A stretch of 64,000 nt of DNA from Promethearchaeota archaeon (GTDB lineage Archaea; Asgardarchaeota; Thorarchaeia; Thorarchaeales; Thorarchaeaceae). Numbering within the stretch: position 1 is the stretch's first letter; every line of letters starts with the position of its first letter. The notes below the pieces were generated by a model. The model searched no databases. It was not told where the DNA came from and worked only from the letters and a program-made list of their open reading frames with translations. Of this stretch, positions 13,960 through 38,640 are shown piece after piece. Made by a program: the position numbers and the translations under genes. Location of the stretch: positions 32,001-96,000 of the forward strand of contig WJMJ01000059.1 of assembly GCA_014728035.1 (NCBI GenBank). The letters are read 5' to 3'.

Positions 13960-14520
13960 TTACCAAGGATGTTTCTTTAGTCCAAGTAGATATCCCAACG
14001 CATTGCTAATCCAATGGATTGCAAGTGTGAAGGAAACTAATATCATGACATAGATTGGAGCTGGTTGGATAATTGGACTGGCAAAAAGCAAAGCAAGTAT
14101 GATGAATCCTAGCTGATCCATTACAGGAGATGGATTTCCACTCTTGATATCTATCCTCCTTTTCAAAAAGGAACCAATCAGGTCTCCGGTCAAAGCTCCA
14201 ATTGACATCAAAACTGCGATGGGAATCGTCATAAAGAGGACTGTTTCCATGTCACTTGTTATTAGTACAAATTCACTTAGAACATCCGGAATCAGTGGTG
14301 CAACAAAACTTTGGGCAGTACCTGCCAATGTACCAAATATCACACCCACAACAAAACCTCTGATGGTTTTGCCATCACCTAGAATTCTATGTCCATCTCT
14401 TAGCACCCTACCTCCATCGATGGGTGGTCCACCTCCAAGTAATACTGGTGTTGCATTAGCTATCCATGCTGGAAGTCCGAACCATAGTGATAACTCTATC
14501 AATGCGATTATTTCGTACAT
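13960..14520 (-). CDS. carS: CDP-archaeol synthase
   Basis: PAWIANATP, PIDGG, GDGKTIRG, GDLIGSFLKRR, DQL, C-terminal KKHPW. Confidence 0.93.
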   Translation of the reverse strand: MYEIIALIELSLWFGLPAWIANATPVLLGGGPPIDGGRVLRDGHRILGDGKTIRGFVVGVIFGTLAGTAQSFVAPLIPDVLSEFVLITSDMETVLFMTIPIAVLMSIGALTGDLIGSFLKRRIDIKSGNPSPVMDQLGFIILALLFASPIIQPAPIYVMILVSFTLAIHWISNALGYLLGLKKHPW

Positions 14521-25142: not shown

Positions 25143-27905
25143 ATGTCAGGCTTCAATAAGTTCAAGAGATCATCTGAAAGATTCCTACGAAAGGTTTTCC
25201 ACAAACCGAAAGCAGAGATATCCCGCGGCTCGATTCTATTAGTGTTGGCACTCTCGATTATCTTCTTTGCAGCTCTGGGTCTTCGAGTATTCTCGTTATT
25301 AGACTCGCAGCCAATCGTGCGCGCGTTTGACCCATGGTTTCAATTGAAGGTTACAGAATATGTGTCCGACAATGGATTTGCCGCATTTTTCACATGGTAT
25401 GATGACACCACTTGGGTTCCATATGGTAGAGATATTGCTAGAACTACCTATATTGGTGTACCTTTTACAACTGCAGCATTCTATACATTGCTAAGTGGAC
25501 TCGGAATAAGTGTTGATATCATCACTGTTGCACTAGTTGTTCCTGCAGTTATGGGCGCTATGACCGTTTTTGTGGCATTCTTATTGGGTCGAGAGGCTTA
25601 CAACAATTCAGTAGGGTTACTAAGTGCTTTGTTTCTAGCTTTCATGCCTGCTTTCCTTCAGAGAACAATCGCTGGATTCTATGATAATGAATTCATTGGG
25701 GTCTTTGCAATTACTCTTTCATTATACTTCTTTATTAGAAGTATCAAGCGAGGATCACTTCCATCCGCAGTTGCAGCTGGATTGTCAGTTGCTTATCTTC
25801 AAGTATCATGGGGTGCTTCTGATTTCCTTACAGCTCTATTTGCTTTGTATGCGTTCTTCATGCTCATCTCTGGGAAATACAATACTCGTGTTCTTACTGC
25901 ATATCTTCCCACTCTCGCAATTGGGATGTTTGTTGGTGGATTAATTCCCCGGAATGGATTTGGAGACCTCACATCTTTCTCAACATTAGCTCCTATTGGA
26001 GTGGCTGGATTACTCGTGTTTTATGAAATTTGGATGCGGGTTCAGACACAAAGAGAAGCAACTGCGGTTGCTCTTGCTCCATACATGCGTCCGCTTCTTG
26101 CCGGAATAATTACACCTGTGATTGGCGTAGGTGCATATATGGCATATAGCAGTAGTAATGAGCTATCAATTGCCACTTCTAATCCCAACCCATTCTTGAC
26201 TATTGGTGGTAAATTCCTTACTGTTGTGAATCCATTCTATCGTTTAGACCAACGGATATTTGCATCTGTTGCCGAGCATCTTCCAAGCCCATGGGGAAGT
26301 TTCTATTACACACTACTTCTTCTAATCTTCTTCTTCCCACTTGGAATGTATTTTGCATTTCGTAGGGGCCGTGATGAAGATTGGTTGTTATTACTTTACG
26401 GTGTAGTTGCAGTGTACTTCACGGGCAGTATGATCCGACTAAGTTTGGTACTAGCACCTGGTGTAGCAATTCTTGCAGCTATTGCAGTAAACGGAATTCT
26501 CCAACCATTTGCTAAGGTTGTTACTGAGAATACTGTCTTTGAACGAAGAAGATTTAGAATGAGTGCATCTCTTACATCTGAACATGCTCTTGCTGCATTC
26601 TTCTTCATAGGTATTTTGCTTTCTGTTAACGTCTATATGGGAGCTCAATATGCTACTCAAGGTGTAAATCAACCTGAATTTGCACTTGCCCCACTATCAA
26701 GTCCAGGACAGGTTACTGATTGGCAGACAGCTATGACATATGTTCGTAACGTTCTTCCCGAAACTGCTGTAATTGGAAGCTGGTGGGATTATGGTTATTG
26801 GATAAATGGTGCTGGTGGAAAGGATACCATTGTAGATAATGCGACGTTTAATCAAACGCAAATTGCATTGATGGGGTACGCATTGATGGCTCTTAATCTG
26901 ACCGAGTCTCTTAAGACCTTTAGTCAGTGGAATACCACACATGTTCTTGTTTATTGGGGTCACCGCTTGAATTACTTTGGTGGTGACGAAGGTAAATGGC
27001 CATGGATGGTTAGAATTGCAGAAGATAGACTCGGCACAAGTGTGATAGATGATGCCACCTATCTTGGTGACGATCCAGACACACCTCAAGAAGAAACCGA
27101 GGCTGCACAAGAGGCATTCTACCAGTCTACTCTATACAAGTTGCTAACATATGGTGAACCAGTATCGGCCGAACAGGCTCAAAGTATGGGTCTTCCTGAC
27201 GGAAGAGTTTCAGTAGATACTGCAGATGGAAGCTATCTATCCGATCCTGATTGGACTTCCCATATTCCGAGAAGTCTCTATGGTGCGTTCAAGGGTCCAT
27301 ACTATAGTTCTTCATATGGTATAGTGAAAATCTATGAAATTGATTATACCATGTACTATCAGTACCTTAACAAGACCAAGGCTGATTACACACCCCTCAG
27401 AGGATCTCTGGAAGATGTGAATTTGGATGGGAACCTATCAGAAACAGAACAGAGTTATGATAGCTTTGATGTAGTCTTTGGTGGAGGTTACGATGCTACA
27501 GTATATTCCCAGTCAAATGGAACCCATATGTATTATGGAATCAAAATGGATAACTATACAGTGGGAGATGACTCAATCGGATTTCAATTTGCTCCCGCTG
27601 ACTCCAAAACCAGAACGGATCTCCGAATTGTAGATTATGCTGGTGAAGACTACTACGATGGCTACACTGACTATACTGGTGATTGGAATACAGACTCAAC
27701 TGGATCCAATCCTGAAGAAGTAGCGAAAAGCGATGGATTCATTGAGTATCTTATACCTTTGGATTCTGACGAGTCACAGGACCAAAACATGGAACCCGGA
27801 ATGAACTATCAGCTTCGTCTTCTCTTTTGGAACAACAGGAACAGTGGAGAACCGACTTATGCCTCAAACTGGGGTACTATTTGGATTCCAGTAATCCTCT
27901 ACTAA
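25143..27905 (+). CDS. aglB: Oligosaccharyltransferase catalytic subunit AglB/STT3
   Basis: FDPWF, DNE, SVAEH, WWDYG, DNATFNQT, DEGKWPWMVRI; multiple TM helices; start at ATG 25143. Confidence 0.96.
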   Translation: MSGFNKFKRSSERFLRKVFHKPKAEISRGSILLVLALSIIFFAALGLRVFSLLDSQPIVRAFDPWFQLKVTEYVSDNGFAAFFTWYDDTTWVPYGRDIARTTYIGVPFTTAAFYTLLSGLGISVDIITVALVVPAVMGAMTVFVAFLLGREAYNNSVGLLSALFLAFMPAFLQRTIAGFYDNEFIGVFAITLSLYFFIRSIKRGSLPSAVAAGLSVAYLQVSWGASDFLTALFALYAFFMLISGKYNTRVLTAYLPTLAIGMFVGGLIPRNGFGDLTSFSTLAPIGVAGLLVFYEIWMRVQTQREATAVALAPYMRPLLAGIITPVIGVGAYMAYSSSNELSIATSNPNPFLTIGGKFLTVVNPFYRLDQRIFASVAEHLPSPWGSFYYTLLLLIFFFPLGMYFAFRRGRDEDWLLLLYGVVAVYFTGSMIRLSLVLAPGVAILAAIAVNGILQPFAKVVTENTVFERRRFRMSASLTSEHALAAFFFIGILLSVNVYMGAQYATQGVNQPEFALAPLSSPGQVTDWQTAMTYVRNVLPETAVIGSWWDYGYWINGAGGKDTIVDNATFNQTQIALMGYALMALNLTESLKTFSQWNTTHVLVYWGHRLNYFGGDEGKWPWMVRIAEDRLGTSVIDDATYLGDDPDTPQEETEAAQEAFYQSTLYKLLTYGEPVSAEQAQSMGLPDGRVSVDTADGSYLSDPDWTSHIPRSLYGAFKGPYYSSSYGIVKIYEIDYTMYYQYLNKTKADYTPLRGSLEDVNLDGNLSETEQSYDSFDVVFGGGYDATVYSQSNGTHMYYGIKMDNYTVGDDSIGFQFAPADSKTRTDLRIVDYAGEDYYDGYTDYTGDWNTDSTGSNPEEVAKSDGFIEYLIPLDSDESQDQNMEPGMNYQLRLLFWNNRNSGEPTYASNWGTIWIPVILY

Positions 27906-30869: not shown

Positions 30870-32192
30870 TTACATGAATCGGAGGTGTTTATATGCATCA
30901 GTTTCTGTGTCAAACGCGTAGTGGACTTTTTGAAAGTCTTTTCTAAAGTCTTCCACATCTGCAGCTACTTTCTTGACATCTTCGCCTTTCACAACGACAC
31001 GATGCATAAATTCTGCAATAGCATCCATCTCTGACTCTTTCATTCCGAGACGGGTCATCTCGCTAGTTCCAAGTCTGATGCCGCCTGGCTTAATATAATC
31101 ACGTCCCATCTTTTTATCCCAAGGCAGAAGATTTCTGTTTATGACAATATTTGCTTTTTCTAGTTCTTCCTCGACCTTGCGACCATTCTTCATTGGGGTC
31201 TCAGATACATCTACTAGTACTTGATGTGATTCAGTGAAGCCTTTGTGTTCAGCAATGACACCCCATCCTCTACCATGGAGTGCTTCAGCTAGTGCTTTTG
31301 CATTCTTCAGTATCTGGGTCATATATGCTTCACCGAATTCCTGTAGCTCAGCTAAGACCACTGCCAAACCTGCTACATTGTGAAGATGATGATTACTCAT
31401 AAGACCTGGAAATGCTGCTCGTTTTATTTCGTCTGCATATTCGTTCTTTGAGAGCACTATGCCATGTTGTGGCCCAGGCATTGTTTTATGGGTTGAAGCG
31501 GTCATGATATCTGCACCTTCTCTTAGTGGGTCTTGGAATTTTCCTGCAGCTATCAGTCCTGAAACATGAGCCGAGTCATATCCTATCTTCATGTCGTATT
31601 CCTGAGCTATATCTACGAACTCTTCAACTGGATGTGGGAATGGAAATACACTTCCGCCAAATAAGAGAAATTCTACATCTTTCCCCTCTTCATACAGGCT
31701 TCTGATCTGCTTCTTGCTAGCGTCCACATCAATATTGAACTCCTCCTCGTCAAAGTCCCAGGTTCTTACCTTGTGTCCTCGTACAGCCCCTGCAGTCCCA
31801 CCTATGCTTCTTCTTGCATGAGAGATGTGCCCACCATGTGCTATGGCCATTGCCATCATTCGGTCCAAGGGCTTCATGAACGTTGTGTACATCATAAGGT
31901 TAGCAACAACACCCGATATTGGACGTACATCTGCGAATTCTGCTCGGAAAAGTTTCTGAGCTAGATCAATACAGATTTTCTCCACCTCGTCGATGTAGAC
32001 ACAACCTGCATACACTCTCTCACCAGGCCACCCCTCTGCATATCGGTCTCTAAAGTCACTCACAATAGCGGACCGTACAGCCGGTGACGAGATGTTTTCT
32101 GAGGCAATGAGATTTATCGTCTTACTCATCCAATTATCATGTTTTTCCAACAGGTCAAAAACCTGATCGTAAAGCTTCTTGTGATCGCTCAA
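30870..32192 (-). CDS. glyA: Serine hydroxymethyltransferase
   Basis: LIASEN, YAEG, GGHISH, STHKTMPGPQ, GIRLGT. Confidence 0.96.
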   Translation of the reverse strand: MSDHKKLYDQVFDLLEKHDNWMSKTINLIASENISSPAVRSAIVSDFRDRYAEGWPGERVYAGCVYIDEVEKICIDLAQKLFRAEFADVRPISGVVANLMMYTTFMKPLDRMMAMAIAHGGHISHARRSIGGTAGAVRGHKVRTWDFDEEEFNIDVDASKKQIRSLYEEGKDVEFLLFGGSVFPFPHPVEEFVDIAQEYDMKIGYDSAHVSGLIAAGKFQDPLREGADIMTASTHKTMPGPQHGIVLSKNEYADEIKRAAFPGLMSNHHLHNVAGLAVVLAELQEFGEAYMTQILKNAKALAEALHGRGWGVIAEHKGFTESHQVLVDVSETPMKNGRKVEEELEKANIVINRNLLPWDKKMGRDYIKPGGIRLGTSEMTRLGMKESEMDAIAEFMHRVVVKGEDVKKVAADVEDFRKDFQKVHYAFDTETDAYKHLRFM

Positions 32193-32380
32193 TGTCGCAC
32201 TTCCTATGCTGGATGTCTGATGTCAGCTATAGTGACCTTCGTTATATCATTTCCGTCATGAATATAATATCAGAAAGATTAGTAGTATGGATTGTTTTTT
32301 GAATAACTTTCATCGTAGTATTACCACAATCTCTATAAACACAAAATGAGTCCACACGTTTTGACTACTATGTCTTCATT

Positions 32381-32514
32381 GGGCTAGTGGCTAAGCCAGG
32401 CATAGCGACAGGCTCTTATTCCACTCAGCGTCCGTTGAGGTGCAGAGAGACTTGTTGGTCGTGGGTTCAAACGCTATGAGATTTCCTCGGGCGGAACGTA
32501 TCCCACCTAGCCCG
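32381..32514 (+). tRNA. tRNA-Lys(CTT) with two introns: 37/38 at 32419-32449 and T-loop 58/59 at 32471-32499
   Basis: Acceptor GGGCTAG/CTAGCCC, D stem GCTA/TAGC, anticodon stem ACAGG/CTTGT, T stem GTGGG/CCCAC; BHB central helices CTCT/AGAG and GTTC/GAAC. Confidence 0.9.
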
Positions 32515-32676
32515 CCTTTCATACTTGTTTTTGGAACTGTAGTCAAGATGCTGATTCTGAAATCATCATGATGGTATAAAATCGGCAAGTACCGAAATTA
32601 TGTTCGTTACCAAATGAAAGTATATATTGTGCGCTTCCACACCATATGAAAATATCAATGAGAACTTTGAGGTGAC

Positions 32677-34311
32677 ATGATGAGTACTATTATTACAAGT
32701 AACAAATACTTTGTTTCAGTATTAATCATAACGATAATCTTTGCTGGTCTTACCTTTGGAAATCTTCCGAGTCCGGGAGTTTCAGCAGGAAGCCAAACAA
32801 TTGATGGTGTTACATACAATTTTGCAGACTATGGCCAATTGAGCCATGAACAACTTGCTCTATTCAATTACTTGGATACTATTGTCAGTTCAAAGTACCA
32901 AGGTTATGGAGAATGGGATGGATGGAATGCTGAAGATTTCCATGGTCTACACCACTATGTCATTGCCTTCATGAGTTATGCTGTTGCATCTATGTTCGAA
33001 ACGACTCCAGGATATCGTACATCATACTATCAGAATTTTGCGTATGACTTGGTCAAGAAGATGAATACCACAATTGACGATTGGGGCAATTCTTCAATCG
33101 AATATAAAGAGTGGGCTCATCCCGACTTTGATTTTACAGAGTATTACTATCCCAACGTCACCAATCCTGATGGAGATGACATCTATACAGGTGGATTTCG
33201 TGGTCCTGCAAACATTATGTGGACTGGTCATTATGCCTTGATGGAAACCTTGTATGAACGAAACTTCAACACTGGAGAGTTTGTTGATGAGATATCTTGG
33301 TTCATAAATGACTGGAATATCTCTCTTCTAACTGATGGGTTCGGTAATCCAAAAGAAGGTGGTATCTGGGGGGTTGGAATTATCCCTTGTGAACCCTACA
33401 TTGTCTTTTCACAATGCAATTCTATACCGATGGTTGCAACTGGGTTGTATGATAATCTCTATGCGACTGACTATCTACCAATGTGGGATTATGGCCTCAA
33501 CTTCATAAACACAGTGATGCAAGATGAGAACGATCTATATACTGATGGATATTTCATTCAAGAGCCTTTAGGATTCGTCTATGCTTCAACTGGAACCCCA
33601 CAAGAGTTTCCTGGACCTTCACTTGATCCATCTGCTGGATTACCTAAGGTGTCTTCATATGGAATTTCATGGGCATTAGCTTTCTTGGATTATTTCCAAC
33701 CAGAAGTTACTATAAATGAGTATCCTATCTTTTTAGAGAAATTCGGGCAAGAGATCTCTGGCAATCTGATGTATATGATGGACTCGTATCATCATCCCAC
33801 TGATTTTGGCACATACGAGCTTCTTGGTTCACTTTTCACAATGCTTCTGGCAAATCAGGTTCAAGATTATTCCACTCGTAACAGACTGATGAATTTCCTA
33901 TATGACTTGTACAATAAGATATGGTCTCCCGATGGTAGAACAATGTACTTTGACACAAGCTCACTTGAACCATTTCTCCAGTCGGTATTGGCTTTTGGAT
34001 ACATCTGGGCAAATAATGAGGTTTCCATCAGAGATTTGGTGGATTCCAGACAAAACGAGTTTTGGGACTACCCGTATATTAGCGAAGCGGATGACTCTCA
34101 TATTTGGGTCTATCAGGCTGAATGGGATGAATCCAAATCTGGCTTCATACTAAATCTTCGTGTAGACCAAACAGCGACATTGACTTTTGCCAATTTCGAC
34201 CATGCTCCTCATGCTTTCTTGGGTGGTAATATATTTTCAGAGCTTTCAGCCACATCCCAAGGGTACGAGCTAACATTGAATCCCGGATTATATAATCTGG
34301 TGATAGTATAG
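32677..34311 (+). CDS. Secreted or membrane-anchored linalool dehydratase/isomerase-like protein
   Basis: N-terminal hydrophobic segment; YVIAFMSYA, NIMWTGH and CEPYIVFSQCN...YDNLYATDY match LinD motifs as recalled (NIMYKGH, CEPDNYFVQCN...YDRLHGTDY). Confidence 0.8.
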   Translation: MMSTIITSNKYFVSVLIITIIFAGLTFGNLPSPGVSAGSQTIDGVTYNFADYGQLSHEQLALFNYLDTIVSSKYQGYGEWDGWNAEDFHGLHHYVIAFMSYAVASMFETTPGYRTSYYQNFAYDLVKKMNTTIDDWGNSSIEYKEWAHPDFDFTEYYYPNVTNPDGDDIYTGGFRGPANIMWTGHYALMETLYERNFNTGEFVDEISWFINDWNISLLTDGFGNPKEGGIWGVGIIPCEPYIVFSQCNSIPMVATGLYDNLYATDYLPMWDYGLNFINTVMQDENDLYTDGYFIQEPLGFVYASTGTPQEFPGPSLDPSAGLPKVSSYGISWALAFLDYFQPEVTINEYPIFLEKFGQEISGNLMYMMDSYHHPTDFGTYELLGSLFTMLLANQVQDYSTRNRLMNFLYDLYNKIWSPDGRTMYFDTSSLEPFLQSVLAFGYIWANNEVSIRDLVDSRQNEFWDYPYISEADDSHIWVYQAEWDESKSGFILNLRVDQTATLTFANFDHAPHAFLGGNIFSELSATSQGYELTLNPGLYNLVIV

Positions 34312-34322
34312 GCGGTGTAACT

Positions 34323-34940
34323 ATGTCTGAAACTCAAACAAAACAAAATGAAGAAACTAGTGATTCACCTTTCATTGAACGTTTTCACATAGAAAGTATT
34401 GAGATGCTTTCATTGACTATCTTATTTGGTCTGATTGGCTCGATATTGGTGTTTCTCTTAACATTGATTCCTTTCCCATATCAGACGATTTCTCTGTTCA
34501 AATTGGGTTTTGTATTTTCCTTGGCACTTATTGCGGTGATTGGTTCAATAAGAGGTCCTATCGCGGGTTTTCTATCTGGATATTTGGGTTTGATTCTCAA
34601 CGATTTCTTCATTGCTGGCACAATAGTCGGTCTGACCCTCCCAGCTGCATCTTATGGAGTTCTCGGATTTATTGTTGGGTTGGGAGTCTATGACTTCGAA
34701 AAAGGAAAATCGCTTGCAAAATTATCCATCATGTCTGCAATTGGTTTGGTATTTACTCTTTTGCTGATACTTCTTCTTGCATTGAGTTTACAGAGTTATT
34801 CTCTATTAGCTGCAATTGGATTTGTGATATTACCAATCGTAACTACTGGATTCCCTTCTGTAATTCTATTACCTCCGATTCTGGCAAGATTATGGCTTCT
34901 ATTCATGAATCGTTTCCTGCCTGATTTTGCGCCTGACTAA
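34323..34940 (+). CDS. ECF transporter S-component-like membrane protein
   Basis: About 200 aa, 5-6 TM helices, GSIRGPIAGFLSGYLG..LND signature. Confidence 0.7.
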   Translation: MSETQTKQNEETSDSPFIERFHIESIEMLSLTILFGLIGSILVFLLTLIPFPYQTISLFKLGFVFSLALIAVIGSIRGPIAGFLSGYLGLILNDFFIAGTIVGLTLPAASYGVLGFIVGLGVYDFEKGKSLAKLSIMSAIGLVFTLLLILLLALSLQSYSLLAAIGFVILPIVTTGFPSVILLPPILARLWLLFMNRFLPDFAPD

Positions 34941-34945
34941 TATTA

Positions 34946-34972
34946 GAGGGCCTTTTGGTCCTCACTTTTTTT
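34946..34972 (+). terminator. Hairpin plus T7
   Basis: GAGGGCC-TTTT-GGTCCTC then ACTTTTTTT. Confidence 0.65.
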
Positions 34973-35121
34973 GAATTTTAATCCAAAACAAAAGATTAAT
35001 TAACAATAGTTACTAGAAGTACGTTGAGATTGAGGTGTCATCGCAAATTTTGATGAATCTTATAGAATCTCAGACAATTATGAAATGATGCAGTTGCATC
35101 AGATGTAGAGGAGTCATAGAA

Positions 35122-35772
35122 ATGGAAACAGTAGAGGAACATAAACGAATGCTTCTGATTGGAGAACAGGTCCCCGATTTTGAAACCAATACCACCCATG
35201 GCCACATCAAATTCTCAGAGTGGGCCAAGGATAGCTGGGTGATTCTTTTCTCCCATCCTGCTGATTTTACTCCGGTTTGTACTACTGAGTTTATTGGATT
35301 CAGTGAGATTCATCCGGAACTGAAAAAACGAAACGTCAAACTCATTGGATTAAGTATAGATAGTGTATATTCACATATTGCTTGGGTTCGAACAATTAAA
35401 GAAAAAATGGGTGTAGATATACCCTTCCCAATAATTGAAGATTTGAGCATGGATGTTGCAAAGAAATACGGAATGCTTCATCCCGCACAGAGCTCAACTT
35501 CTGCTGTGCGTGCAGTCTTCTTTATTGACCCCGAGTTTAAACTTCGTGCACTGATCTATTATCCTTTGAGTAATGGTAGAAGTATGAGTGAAATTCTAAG
35601 AATCATTGATGCTTTTCAAACTTCTGACAAGCATGGCGTTGCGACGCCCGCAAATTGGGAACCTGGAAAAGAAGTAATAGTACCTCCTCCAAAAACCCAA
35701 GAAGCAGCGGAAAAACGCTTGGCAGAAGGATATGATTGCAAAGACTGGTTCTTTTGCAAGAAGAAACTATAA
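35122..35772 (+). CDS. Peroxiredoxin (Prx6/archaeal thioredoxin peroxidase type)
   Basis: HPADFTPVCTTE; C-terminal CKDWFFC. Confidence 0.95.
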   Translation: METVEEHKRMLLIGEQVPDFETNTTHGHIKFSEWAKDSWVILFSHPADFTPVCTTEFIGFSEIHPELKKRNVKLIGLSIDSVYSHIAWVRTIKEKMGVDIPFPIIEDLSMDVAKKYGMLHPAQSSTSAVRAVFFIDPEFKLRALIYYPLSNGRSMSEILRIIDAFQTSDKHGVATPANWEPGKEVIVPPPKTQEAAEKRLAEGYDCKDWFFCKKKL

Positions 35773-35887
35773 TCAAATAGGGGCGCAATGCCCACTTTCT
35801 TTTTTTATGAATCAATTATCTGAAAAGTAGCCAGACTTATAGGTAGCAATTTATCAGATTATTCCAATAGTCTTGGAGTGTCTTAGA

Positions 35888-36691
35888 ATGATATTCAATC
35901 CATTGGGTTCTGATCTTCAGATATTATGGGATTTTATTGCAACTTTTCTGTCCTTCTTGCTTGTACTTATTGTTGTTCAAATCAATGGTGCAATTCAGAA
36001 GAGCGGGAAATTATCAGCTGATATAACTCGAAAAATTGTACATATCTTTGCAGCACCTGTGTATCTAGTTAGCTGGATGCTATTCTCCGGTGGCTCCTTG
36101 AGTAGGTTCTTTGCAATGATTGTGCCTTTGCTATTCGTTATTCTTTTCGTTTCTATTGGTACTGGAAAGGTAGTAAATGAGGCATTTGTAGGTTCGATGT
36201 CTCGTTCTGGAAACCCTCGAGAGTTACTTGGTGGTACTCTCTATTACGCACTGATGCTTGTAATCGTAACTGTTCTTTGGTTCTATGTTCCATCTGATGC
36301 CCTTGGTAATCCAACTCCAATAGCTTTCATTGTCTTTGGATGCGTAGCTGGCGGCGATGGGTTGGCTGATGTTATAGGACGAAAATATGGTGGTGAGAAG
36401 AAATTTGGAATTGGTGGAGCTGAACGTACAGTAATCGGATCAATTGCCATGTTTATTGGATCTTTTCTATTCAGTTTCCTCTTAATTGCAATATTTTCAC
36501 TAGAGGTTGGATTTTCTATTACACTCATGATTCTTCCCGTTCTTATTCTTAGTATCGTTGCTACGATTACTGAGGCTCTGTCTCCAAAGGGGCTGGATAA
36601 TTGGACAGTACCAATTGTATTGGTTATTGTGATTGTAATTATGGGCTTATTCCTACCTACACTCTGGCCATATCCACTATTAACTATCTAA
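35888..36691 (+). CDS. CTP-dependent phytol/farnesol/dolichol kinase family protein
   Basis: TRKIVHI, MSRSG..RELLGGTLYY, GDGLADVIGRKYG, DNWTVP; multi-TM. Confidence 0.85.
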   Translation: MIFNPLGSDLQILWDFIATFLSFLLVLIVVQINGAIQKSGKLSADITRKIVHIFAAPVYLVSWMLFSGGSLSRFFAMIVPLLFVILFVSIGTGKVVNEAFVGSMSRSGNPRELLGGTLYYALMLVIVTVLWFYVPSDALGNPTPIAFIVFGCVAGGDGLADVIGRKYGGEKKFGIGGAERTVIGSIAMFIGSFLFSFLLIAIFSLEVGFSITLMILPVLILSIVATITEALSPKGLDNWTVPIVLVIVIVIMGLFLPTLWPYPLLTI

Positions 36692-36706
36692 TGAGGTTCC
36701 AACTTC

Positions 36707-37525
36707 ATGAGCTCTCACTTGACTGTCTTGAAACTTGGTGGCTCTTTGCTTACCGATAAATCCCATCCATATGTAGTCCGAGAAGACATCATTGCTTCAG
36801 TATCCAAAGAAATCAGGGAATGTATGGATTCAGGACTCATTCAGTTTCTTGTATTAGTTCATGGAGTTGGCTCCTATGGACACCCTCCTGTTCTTGAACA
36901 TAAACTGCACAAGGGATTTCTCGGAACTGAACAATTACTTCCGATTTCAAAGACTCAAGCGATAGTTGGCGAATTTCGAGCCCTGCTTGTGAAACATCTT
37001 CAAGAAGCAGAGATTCCCGTTTGCCTGATGTATCCTTCGTCTATGATAATTGCTGAGAAGATGAAGATAATTGATTTCTATCTAGAGCCCCTCAAAGCTT
37101 GGTTGAAGATGGGTACGGTTCCCCTTTTAGGCGGAGATATGCTTGTTGATACTGCTATGGGCTGGTCTGTAGGTAGTGGTGACCAAATGGCAGTAATCTT
37201 GAGTAAAGAATTGTGTGCCAAACGTCTTATCTTCGCGTCGGATGTTTCAGGAATCTATGAATCAGAACCAAAAGAAAACCCAGATGCTCAAATCATCCAT
37301 GAAATAAATTTGAATGAAGTTGACTCTATACTTGAGAGACTCAGCAAATCGGGTACAAAAGATGCAAGTGGTGCAATGAAAGGAAAACTACATTCAATAC
37401 TTCCTGCAAAAGACTTGATTGAGAATGGGCTTGATGTTACCATAATGTCGATGATGAAATATGGCACTCTAACAAAACTACTAGAAAATGAAGAAGATAT
37501 TGGTACGAAAATTGTTTCCAAGTAG
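36707..37525 (+). CDS. ipk: Isopentenyl phosphate kinase
   Basis: LKLGGSLLTDK, VHGVGSYGH (IPK His), SGD, DASGAMKGK. Confidence 0.88.
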   Translation: MSSHLTVLKLGGSLLTDKSHPYVVREDIIASVSKEIRECMDSGLIQFLVLVHGVGSYGHPPVLEHKLHKGFLGTEQLLPISKTQAIVGEFRALLVKHLQEAEIPVCLMYPSSMIIAEKMKIIDFYLEPLKAWLKMGTVPLLGGDMLVDTAMGWSVGSGDQMAVILSKELCAKRLIFASDVSGIYESEPKENPDAQIIHEINLNEVDSILERLSKSGTKDASGAMKGKLHSILPAKDLIENGLDVTIMSMMKYGTLTKLLENEEDIGTKIVSK

Positions 37526-37566: not shown

Positions 37567-38640
37567 TTGTATTTGTCTGTACCAACACGATCTCAGCAAA
37601 ATTATCGAGACCGTGATATATTTAGAGACGCGAAAGATCGAATCTATGTCACACTTGGTCATATTCAACCAAAAGACGGAATCATCTCAACTTTGAAGTA
37701 TGTACCTGATAGGAAAGGGAAATGGCAGTCACAGGGAATCCGTTATCGAAGGGTATTTTCAAATAATGTGGAAAGTGTTACGGGTGGTCAAGGGATTTTG
37801 CCAGATGACTATTATGATGATAGCCATTTTGGTATTCCATTACTAAAGTTTCCAAAACATGAGGTCACTCAATATTACTCTCCTGAGAAACGTCTAGAAT
37901 CTCTTCTAGAAACTGGATGTAATGATCCGTTAGAACAGACTGCTGTTGAATTATCGCAAATTCTTCATGATAATTTGGATATTCCCTTCAATCATTTGGG
38001 TGTAACTGGTAGTATTGCATGGCATGCTCACAATCCCGGCTTCTCAGATATCAACTTAAACATTCATGGATATGAGTGGAGTTGGATATTAGAACAAGGC
38101 TATTCTGAACTGGTTGAGGAAAATACTGAATTACAGATGAAAAAAGGAAATCTTTGGGATGACTCAATAGCACGTGCCGCTAAACGGATTCCTGTTCTTC
38201 GTTCTAGTGCATTAAAGAGGCTTTTCACTCGACGTACGCAACTAATGTATAATGGACATGGAGTTACTATTATGCCAGTCCTGTACTCTTCCGAATCTCC
38301 AATTAGATATGGTTCTGAGAAGTATTATACTCTTGATTTAGTCATATCTGATTTTAAAATCAAATCTTCAAGGTATGGTATTTTCTTCCCTGCAATCTAT
38401 GATGTCACTGGAGAAGTCCAATATGAAACACAAATTCTGTCAATTAATCGGCTCTTAATCTATGATGGTACCTTTCGAGGCTTATTTCATCCAGAAGACC
38501 AAATTCAAGTATGTGGCACTCTTCAAAGAGTGGAATCATCTGAACAAAAATCACCTTTTCATCAGATTATGATTGGCACTAAATCTGGTAGCGGCAGAGA
38601 ATTCATCAAATTAACTAGACCATCACAGTCATATCTGTAA
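37567..38640 (+). CDS. Archaeal nucleotidyltransferase-domain protein (COG1665-like)
   Basis: RDRD, LKYVP, GVTGS...SDINL Pol-beta-like motif, C-terminal OB-like domain. Confidence 0.7.
   Translation: MYLSVPTRSQQNYRDRDIFRDAKDRIYVTLGHIQPKDGIISTLKYVPDRKGKWQSQGIRYRRVFSNNVESVTGGQGILPDDYYDDSHFGIPLLKFPKHEVTQYYSPEKRLESLLETGCNDPLEQTAVELSQILHDNLDIPFNHLGVTGSIAWHAHNPGFSDINLNIHGYEWSWILEQGYSELVEENTELQMKKGNLWDDSIARAAKRIPVLRSSALKRLFTRRTQLMYNGHGVTIMPVLYSSESPIRYGSEKYYTLDLVISDFKIKSSRYGIFFPAIYDVTGEVQYETQILSINRLLIYDGTFRGLFHPEDQIQVCGTLQRVESSEQKSPFHQIMIGTKSGSGREFIKLTRPSQSYL

Follow-up and report, generated by a model that had tools for sequence, protein, structure and literature searches.

Do the genes at positions 32677-37525 of a thorarchaeal DNA window form a single pathway for the scavenging of isoprenoid alcohols, or two systems that lie next to each other? 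The window is the whole stretch of 64,000 nucleotides that was analysed (positions 32,001 to 96,000 of contig WJMJ01000059.1, GenBank assembly GCA_014728035.1, Promethearchaeota archaeon, family Thorarchaeaceae) and comes from a 4.3-Mb genome bin made up of 173 contigs. Four genes are in question. They encode a protein similar to linalool dehydratase/isomerase (LinD), a membrane protein resembling the S components of energy-coupling factor (ECF) transporters (S-like protein), a membrane protein of the polyprenol kinase family (kinase-A) and a paralog of isopentenyl phosphate kinase (IPK), here termed IPK-A. A sequence-only reading had joined all four into one route, in which an exo-enzyme makes primary prenols from environmental terpenes or tertiary prenols such as isophytol and phytadienes, the S component imports them, and kinase-A and IPK-A turn them into the diphosphates from which ether lipids or dolichol are made. 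The comparative analysis points instead to two independent, separately transcribed two-gene units, LinD-S (unit 1) and kinase-IPK (unit 2), which stand side by side in a syntenic block. Together with the functions proposed below, this is the explanation we favour, and as a whole we regard it as moderately probable.

Distribution and layout of the two gene pairs

Among 76 genomes of the same family, the LinD-S pair and kinase-A are found together in 33, LinD-S without kinase-A in nine, kinase-A without LinD-S in 25 and neither in nine. The association between them corresponds to an odds ratio of 1.32 (Fisher p 0.79), and since relatives are not independent of each other, the test, if anything, overstates it. 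Six of the nine genomes with LinD-S only are at least 90% complete, and four of those checked have only the housekeeping type of IPK. Of the 34 same-family genomes holding both pairs, 18 (six genera) have them no more than about 3 kb apart and the other 16 on different contigs. In two further families with LinD-S (f13 and f22), either over 100 kb separates the pairs or they sit on separate contigs; outside their own family the pairs are never neighbours. The kinase-IPK loci of Loki-, Bathy-, Hod- and Hermodarchaeota, Methanomassiliicoccales and Chloroflexota contained no LinD-like gene upstream. Each pair stays together practically everywhere, but the connection from one pair to the other is often broken. 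Synteny and co-occurrence across genomes, proposed as a check when the four genes were first read as one system, speak largely against that system, the pairs being neither regularly linked nor co-distributed.

A check of open reading frames (ORFs) and terminators found five genes on the plus strand, i.e. the four genes and a peroxiredoxin gene between the pairs, all where the sequence-only reading had placed them. The terminator that it had noted as parting the pairs is present and is followed by a second one behind the peroxiredoxin gene; carS and aglB, which it had mentioned as further genes of the window, were both located. The features are as follows (window positions).

32677-34311, plus strand: LinD/Ldi-like enzyme, 544 amino acids (PF18566, match to LinD in the PDB, AF2 model)
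34323-34940, plus strand: ECF S-component-like membrane protein, 205 amino acids, approximately six helices (PF07155 matches of orthologues, Foldseek)
34946-34963, plus strand: terminator-like hairpin, with T-run to 34972, closing the LinD-S transcription unit
35122-35772, plus strand: 1-Cys peroxiredoxin (PF00578, PF10417; NF009668 at 313 bits)
35781-35793, plus strand: terminator-like hairpin 3' of the peroxiredoxin gene, with T-rich tail to 35803
35888-36691, plus strand: kinase-A, polyprenol-kinase-family membrane protein, ATG start, 267 amino acids (motifs, source names)
36707-37525, plus strand: IPK-A, isopentenyl phosphate kinase paralog, 272 amino acids (NF040647)
13963-14508, minus strand: carS, 18 kb upstream of the five-gene stretch
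25236-26477, plus strand: AglB/STT3, 6 kb upstream of the five-gene stretch

The spacers within the pairs are short (11 nt between the LinD-like and the S-like gene, 15 nt between kinase-A and IPK-A). The kinase-A reading frame is open from a TTG at 35873 (35873-36691, 272 amino acids), but its true start is probably the ATG at 35888, which gives the 267 amino acids of its database cluster. The intervening peroxiredoxin gene is part of the syntenic backbone rather than of either pair; relatives have or lack it independently of both. SHMT, peroxiredoxin, a conserved unknown ORF, Trm5b, DUF371 and PCMT likewise keep their order in the block. Because such unrelated housekeeping genes share the synteny, the adjacency of the two pairs in one family says little about function. 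Directly 3' of IPK-A comes a conserved ORF of 357 amino acids (37567-38640, plus strand), which in the block always precedes Trm5b; searches of Pfam, NCBIfam and PDB sequences gave no match for it. ARAGORN detected no tRNA in the interval from SHMT to the LinD-like gene (32150-32700).

The odds ratio near one, the terminator-like sites and the unrelated gene between the units argue for their independence. What keeps the four-gene route alive is the half-conserved adjacency together with its coherent chemistry, the step from isophytol to phytol being analogous to that from linalool to geraniol. Moreover, both units plausibly act on isoprenoid alcohols, and the pocket residues of IPK-A are smaller than those of the housekeeping type. 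Set against the many genomes with one pair only, the dispersed pairs of the two other families and the kinase-IPK operon of lineages without a LinD-like gene upstream, this leaves the four-gene scavenging pathway without support from the comparison, and we consider it unlikely. Treating the units as independent spares later work the pursuit of a four-gene pathway without backing from comparative genomics.

The LinD-like enzyme and its membrane partner

The product of the first gene scored 53.5 bits against the Pfam family Ldi (PF18566, cut-off 26.1), and a phmmer search of the PDB returned LinD chains only (5g1u, E 6e-10). With hhalign, its family profile aligned to a bacterial LinD representative over 301 columns (probability 99%, E 6.6e-18). 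The AF2 model (pLDDT 88) comprises an N-terminal membrane helix (approximately residues 10-27), an (alpha/alpha)6 barrel (approximately 57-455) and a C-terminal beta-sandwich (approximately 467-543); the protein contains four N-x-S/T sequons. In Foldseek, the top 27 matches of the model were LinD chains (TM 0.75-0.79, about 0.78; E 1e-14 to 1e-12). The motif NIMWTGH aligns with NIMYKGH of LinD (M125, H129) and CEPYIVFSQC with CEPDNYFVQC (C171, C180). The counterparts of LinD M125, H129, C171, C180 and Y66 (M181, H185, C238, C247 and Y94) are invariant across 24 homologues, while that of Y45 (Y74) is the majority residue, not an invariant one. The LinD structure papers reportedly assign catalytic roles to these six residues; the PDB contains the LinD variants C171A, C171S, C180A and M125A. 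Family score, active-site residues and fold all agree with LinD, and the identity originally read from the sequence holds, also in the comparison of predicted structures that had been proposed for it.

LinD relatives are few (58 clusters among 1.8 billion representatives). Within the phylum, 42 of 76 genomes of its own family carry the LinD-like gene. Two other families have it as well (2 of 3 genomes in one, 4 of 21 in the other); approximately 200 genomes of 27 further families yielded none. In two relatives, a tandem of two LinD-like genes stands directly upstream of kinase-IPK (G179:C16:214668-219949 and G299:C361:7845-11883).

An (alpha/alpha)6 barrel might also belong to a glycan-active enzyme of the cell surface rather than to an alkenol enzyme. 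Weaker fold matches to GH76, GH127, YteR and epimerases, the export of the protein, a beta-sandwich tail as in many glycoside hydrolases and the presence of AglB in the window would fit such a role. These matches have E values above 2e-4, however, ten orders of magnitude weaker than those to LinD; the LinD-specific Met, His and Cys-Cys are invariant, and no carbohydrate genes recur nearby. A glycan substrate is accordingly judged very unlikely.

The S-like gene follows the LinD-like gene directly in all 15 relatives' loci, one of them at 33% identity, with spacers from -4 to +60 nt. The same adjacency was seen in two metagenome loci (35% and 30% identity) and in 21 further loci; at 27% identity of the LinD-like protein the S-like partner is gone. 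PF07155 was matched by 12 of 15 S-like orthologues (E up to 0.1, best 3.8e-8), and the partner of the 30%-identity LinD relative has a precomputed match to the same family (E 1e-5 or better). The top 25 Foldseek matches of the S-like model were all ECF S components (TM by target 0.45-0.67), and a search of the S-like family profile against PDB sequences gave no match at E 10. The designation as an S-component-like transporter finds some support in the orthologues and in the weak Foldseek matches, while the window protein itself stays below the PF07155 threshold.

For the complex of the LinD-like and S-like proteins, the model reached an ipSAE of 0.78, compared to 0.00 for the best of three controls. 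The ipSAE mark applied here was attained by 58 of 80 solved complexes and by 2 of 110 mismatched pairs in a benchmark, counts that apply roughly, as the model was built from our own alignments. Contact agreement between runs was at least 94% and partner pLDDT at least 83. In the modelled interface, the N-terminal helix of the enzyme contacts helices of the partner, and barrel loops contact the first loop of the partner (residues 50-63). We know of no similar complex of an enzyme and an S component, so that memorisation is an unlikely reason for the pass. The model, although it does not amount to a demonstration of binding, supports a predicted membrane complex and a functional tie between the two proteins. 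Their linkage, noted earlier as an 11-nt spacing, proved firm, the genes being adjacent at every locus examined down to 30% identity.

Clustering of the neighbours of 13 LinD-S loci, with a Pfam scan of those outside the backbone, yielded no consistent third partner (ArsR, LiaF-like, GNAT, HAD, nucleotidyltransferase, a generic ABC ATPase and a HEAT-repeat NTPase were found), and no ECF operon stood beside LinD-S in the loci examined. The genome holds two stand-alone EcfA-A'-T modules (contigs C103 and C51) and a CbiMNQO cluster (C34), none of which adjoins the pair. The stand-alone modules would be able to energise an orphan S component, and a true ECF role of the S-like protein is possible. 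A short piece resembling the C-terminus of the S-like protein was found between the peroxiredoxin and kinase genes of genome G021 (locus L040, contig C90, approximately 2395-2563). A LinD-like gene was not found in this genome, and by its sequence the fragment may be a relic of a lost LinD-S pair.

From the observed pairing, fold and active-site conservation and from the predicted contact, we infer chemistry, substrate and direction of unit 1 as follows. A membrane-anchored, outward-facing LinD-type (alpha/alpha)6 enzyme would sit on the S-component-like membrane protein. On the outward side of the membrane, it would most likely act on an allylic isoprenoid (alkenol or alkene) by hydration, dehydration or isomerisation, and the S-like partner would deliver or receive the compound.

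The same enzyme might serve catabolism rather than biosynthesis by activating isoprenoid alkenes or alkenols without oxygen for uptake and oxidation. This is the only physiological role known to have been demonstrated for the LinD family (in Castellaniella defragrans), and the surroundings of distant homologues point weakly in the same direction. The 30%-identity homologue, which has an S-like partner, lies no more than 5 kb from two Zn-alcohol dehydrogenases and an aldehyde:ferredoxin oxidoreductase; the 27% homologue stands among genes for acyl-CoA dehydrogenase, enoyl-CoA hydratase, aldehyde dehydrogenase and an Fe-alcohol dehydrogenase, and an acyl-CoA dehydrogenase is encoded near the 35% homologue. 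These neighbours are on mixed strands, however, and may be there by chance, and genes for oxidation do not recur beside the thorarchaeal pairs. Catabolism is therefore regarded as a doubtful, though real, possibility.

A second alternative for unit 1 is membrane remodelling, in which the enzyme would hydrate or isomerise an unsaturated lipid, a polyprenol or a quinone tail of the cell itself, with the S-like protein as a static, lipid-presenting subunit. ECF transporters work by toppling, and an enzyme helix locked onto the S-like protein, as in the predicted complex, would hinder this movement; the absence of dedicated EcfAA'T genes beside LinD-S at all loci examined is in line with a static role as well. 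On the other hand, the stand-alone EcfAA'T modules of the genome speak for transport, the patchy occurrence within the family (42 of 76 genomes) argues against a core lipid function, and no modified lipid is known for the group. Remodelling thus appears quite unlikely, and we retain the proposal of an alkenol or alkene exchanged with the S-like partner.

The kinase-IPK pair

An IPK gene lies directly 3' of kinase-A in all 17 family orthologues and likewise in seven other Asgard families, and the operon is present in 77 of 80 public loci. Its hosts comprise Thor-, Loki- (including the cultured MK-D1), Hod-, Hermod- and Bathyarchaeota, Methanomassiliicoccales and Chloroflexota. Both genes were present in 17 genomes, IPK-A only in one, the kinase only in none, and neither in seven; genomes without the pair retain only the other type of IPK where checked. 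The earlier suggestion that kinase and IPK form a genuine pair, fitting two successive phosphorylations, is thereby strengthened. In MK-D1 (Promethearchaeum syntrophicum), the operon is found at locus L154 (NZ_CP042905.2, 2725215-2732018), where it occupies approximately 2,728,215-2,729,853. Four loci in Chloroflexota metagenome-assembled genomes (MAGs; L188, L190, L191 and L193) carry it at 48-53% identity, which suggests, from sequence comparison, a transfer between domains; one Chloroflexia genome that was checked has only the kinase-linked IPK type. At three loci (L037 in G012:C22, L137 and L185), kinase-A is followed by just a short N-terminal IPK fragment. A full IPK-A is located approximately 3.3 kb further on the same strand in G012, which suggests an insertion or a broken copy.

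IPK-A scored 176 bits against NF040647 (cut-off 120) and matched PDB IPKs at E 1e-33. The catalytic histidine of the GS.GH motif (H59) is invariant among 49 IPK sequences, and the identity as isopentenyl phosphate kinase stands as first read. A second IPK of the genome (G000:C9:185200-185967) is 27% identical to IPK-A and lies beside the genes for ribosomal protein S10 and GlmS, surroundings that are uninformative. Contamination as its origin was rejected, since nearly every genome of the family has an orthologue. A second IPK is also present in MK-D1, in one Bathyarchaeota MAG and in one Methanomassiliicoccales MAG.

In a maximum-likelihood tree of the 49 IPKs, all 28 kinase-adjacent sequences form one clade (support 100/96), split (98/94) from single-copy and second-copy IPKs; the C9 enzyme clusters with IPKs that other Asgard families have in single copy. 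The kinase-linked clade always carries the smaller residue at four columns near the pocket for the substrate tail (T/A vs I/T, V vs M, V vs I and G/C vs L/I/V), two of which are also the positions changed in PDB entries of engineered M. alvus IPK. IPK-A is a distinct, kinase-linked paralog, and the C9 enzyme probably serves the mevalonate pathway.

Among the relatives of kinase-A, 6 of 19 matched PF01148 weakly (E 0.0017 or weaker), and the kinase-A family profile matched CdsA in the PDB (4q2e, E 0.003, weak). The protein contains the motifs RKxxH, GGDGLADVIGRKYG (GGDG.A...G...G) and E..P..DN, with R48, K49, H52, G156, D157, G158, G164, E229, D237 and N238 invariant in 19 sequences. RKxxH is the charged clamp of the Plasmodium prenol kinase PfPolK (PMC10849223), which kinase-A retains. 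Its relatives are named dolichol kinase, phytol kinase or polyprenol kinase in their sources, and atlas neighbours agree. The label of a phytol- or farnesol-kinase-like protein given in the sequence-only reading finds backing in motifs, source names, atlas neighbours and the weak CdsA match, but not in any curated family. Two further genes of the genome belong to this context. Nearly every genome of the family has a second polyprenol-kinase-family paralog (here G000:C94:68808-69536, 31% identity), which may be the actual dolichol kinase; its surroundings (Rpb5-Mrr fusions, MoCF, HD, TatD) are uninformative. A DUF92/VTE6-like membrane protein (225 bits) is encoded at G000:C37:70168-70953, in equally uninformative surroundings (Band 7, NfeD).

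What the analysis shows directly is that the pairing is obligatory, that IPK-A is a paralog and that its clade has pocket changes of its own; both activities and the chain length acted upon we infer. The CTP-type polyprenol-kinase-family protein would most likely turn a free isoprenoid alcohol into its monophosphate, and the dedicated IPK-A would convert this prenyl monophosphate into the diphosphate, which amounts to prenol salvage. The C9 IPK would serve the mevalonate pathway.

Alternatively, unit 2 could be plain housekeeping, with kinase-A as dolichol kinase and IPK-A as the IPK of the mevalonate pathway, joined for co-regulation only. Many orthologues of kinase-A are called 'dolichol kinase' by JGI, IPK-A scores as well as the C9 copy on the IPK family model, and the single IPKs of other Asgard families are slightly nearer in identity to IPK-A than to the second type of the family (IPK-B). 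The tree nevertheless groups these single-copy enzymes with IPK-B and not with IPK-A. Furthermore, 18 of the 76 family genomes yielded no unit 2, operon-bearing archaea including MK-D1 have a second IPK, and the near-universal C94 paralog could take the part of dolichol kinase. A housekeeping role for the pair is held to be improbable, and prenol salvage remains the preferred function of unit 2.

Several points weigh against the explanation by two units or against parts of it. For unit 1, the S-like protein of the window scored 21.5 bits against PF07155, under the threshold of 26.7, and its fold match to S components is weak (E 0.012 or weaker). In LinD, D39' comes from the neighbouring protomer of the pentamer; the corresponding column holds D67 in the window protein, yet it is not conserved in the family, so that the oligomeric active site may differ from that of LinD. 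For unit 2, kinase-A had no Pfam or NCBIfam match even at E 10, and the choice of 'kinase' rather than 'cytidylyltransferase' is based on motifs and source names. The DUF92/VTE6-like gene could equally perform the second phosphorylation. The IPK tree is unrooted, so that the term 'accessory paralog' follows from distribution and not from polarity, and the link drawn between the pocket columns and the control of chain length follows in part what Dellas and Noel reportedly found in 2010. Finally, about half of the family genomes with both units have them adjacent, and a facultative functional link between them is conceivable.

Comparison with known systems

The salvage of farnesol and geranylgeraniol by two kinases has been described for plants, animals, parasites and archaea, and only in plants is the second step assigned to a gene (VTE6) (PMC10849223, PMC9782597); outside plants, the salvage enzymes remain unidentified (PMC10849223). 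Two successive phosphorylations of prenols were reported as enzyme activities of Sulfolobus in 1996 (PMID 8830051, as cited in PMC9385802, PMC9782597 and PMC10849223), and the passages on them in PMC10849223 and PMC9782597 name no archaeal genes. The statement that no such route had been described in archaea has to be narrowed accordingly: it does not apply to two-step prenol phosphorylation, known as activities through these citing papers. For the LinD part, no literature linking LinD to archaea was found. Nor was literature found on IPK paralogs in Asgard archaea or on IPK paralogs tied to a membrane kinase.

Against this background, kinase-A and IPK-A are two concrete candidate genes for salvage, spread from Thorarchaeota to MK-D1, Bathyarchaeota, Methanomassiliicoccales and Chloroflexota, and their operon is a natural counterpart to the engineered isopentenol utilisation pathway. 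The main novelty is the IPK paralog as a candidate polyprenyl-phosphate kinase, proposed from sequence, along with the predicted complex of an enzyme and an S-component-like protein. If an exo-enzyme does dock on such a protein, this would be a new use of the ECF transporter fold, and the LinD-like protein would extend the very small LinD family into archaea. A bolder version would have IPK-A as the missing polyprenyl-phosphate kinase that completes, with kinase-A, a full salvage operon, fed in Thorarchaeota by a LinD/S-component machine turning sedimentary isoprenoids (phytadienes, isophytol-type alcohols) into importable primary prenols for lipids; we rate it as distinctly improbable.

Like the Sulfolobus system, unit 2 would have an archaeon phosphorylate a free prenol twice in succession; the Sulfolobus activities are cited without named genes, and they may or may not correspond to this gene pair. 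With plant VTE5 and VTE6, FOLK and Plasmodium PolK it shares a polytopic protein of the CTP-type kinase family with the RKxxH clamp and the GDG.A...G...G motif; as in VTE5/VTE6, formation of the diphosphate would fall to a second kinase. Unlike in plants, the linked second enzyme is an IPK paralog with the amino-acid-kinase fold and not DUF92/VTE6, whose gene lies elsewhere in the genome; the genes of unit 2 form an operon, and the hosts are archaeal or Chloroflexota. Compared to the archaeal IPK of the mevalonate pathway (NF040647; PDB 3K4O, 3LL9 and 8U0K), IPK-A has the same fold, catalytic GS.GH histidine and family score, whereas it falls into a separate clade, is always tied to a membrane kinase, carries smaller residues at the four tail-pocket columns and coexists with a second IPK.

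The S-like protein resembles ECF S components (RibU, ThiT, FolT; PF07155/PF12822) in being a small membrane protein with a GP..G...G...G motif and approximately six helices. Its nearest solved structural relatives, although matched weakly, are all S components, and EcfAA'T modules exist in the genome. Unlike them, it falls below the family threshold and is never found beside ECF genes, but always beside an exo-enzyme whose docking on it is predicted by the complex model; the S components known to us have vitamins or metals as ligands, not enzymes. The LinD-like protein agrees with LinD of C. defragrans (PF18566; PDB 5G1U, 5HLR and 5I3T) in the (alpha/alpha)6 barrel (TM 0.78), in the motifs NIM..GH and CEP....QC, in the equivalents of Y66 and Y45 and in its extracytoplasmic location. 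It differs by its archaeal host and by an identity to LinD of only about 20%, by an N-terminal membrane helix that is retained where LinD has a cleaved signal peptide, by the additional C-terminal beta-sandwich, by the lack of a conserved D39' equivalent and by its obligatory S-component-like partner.

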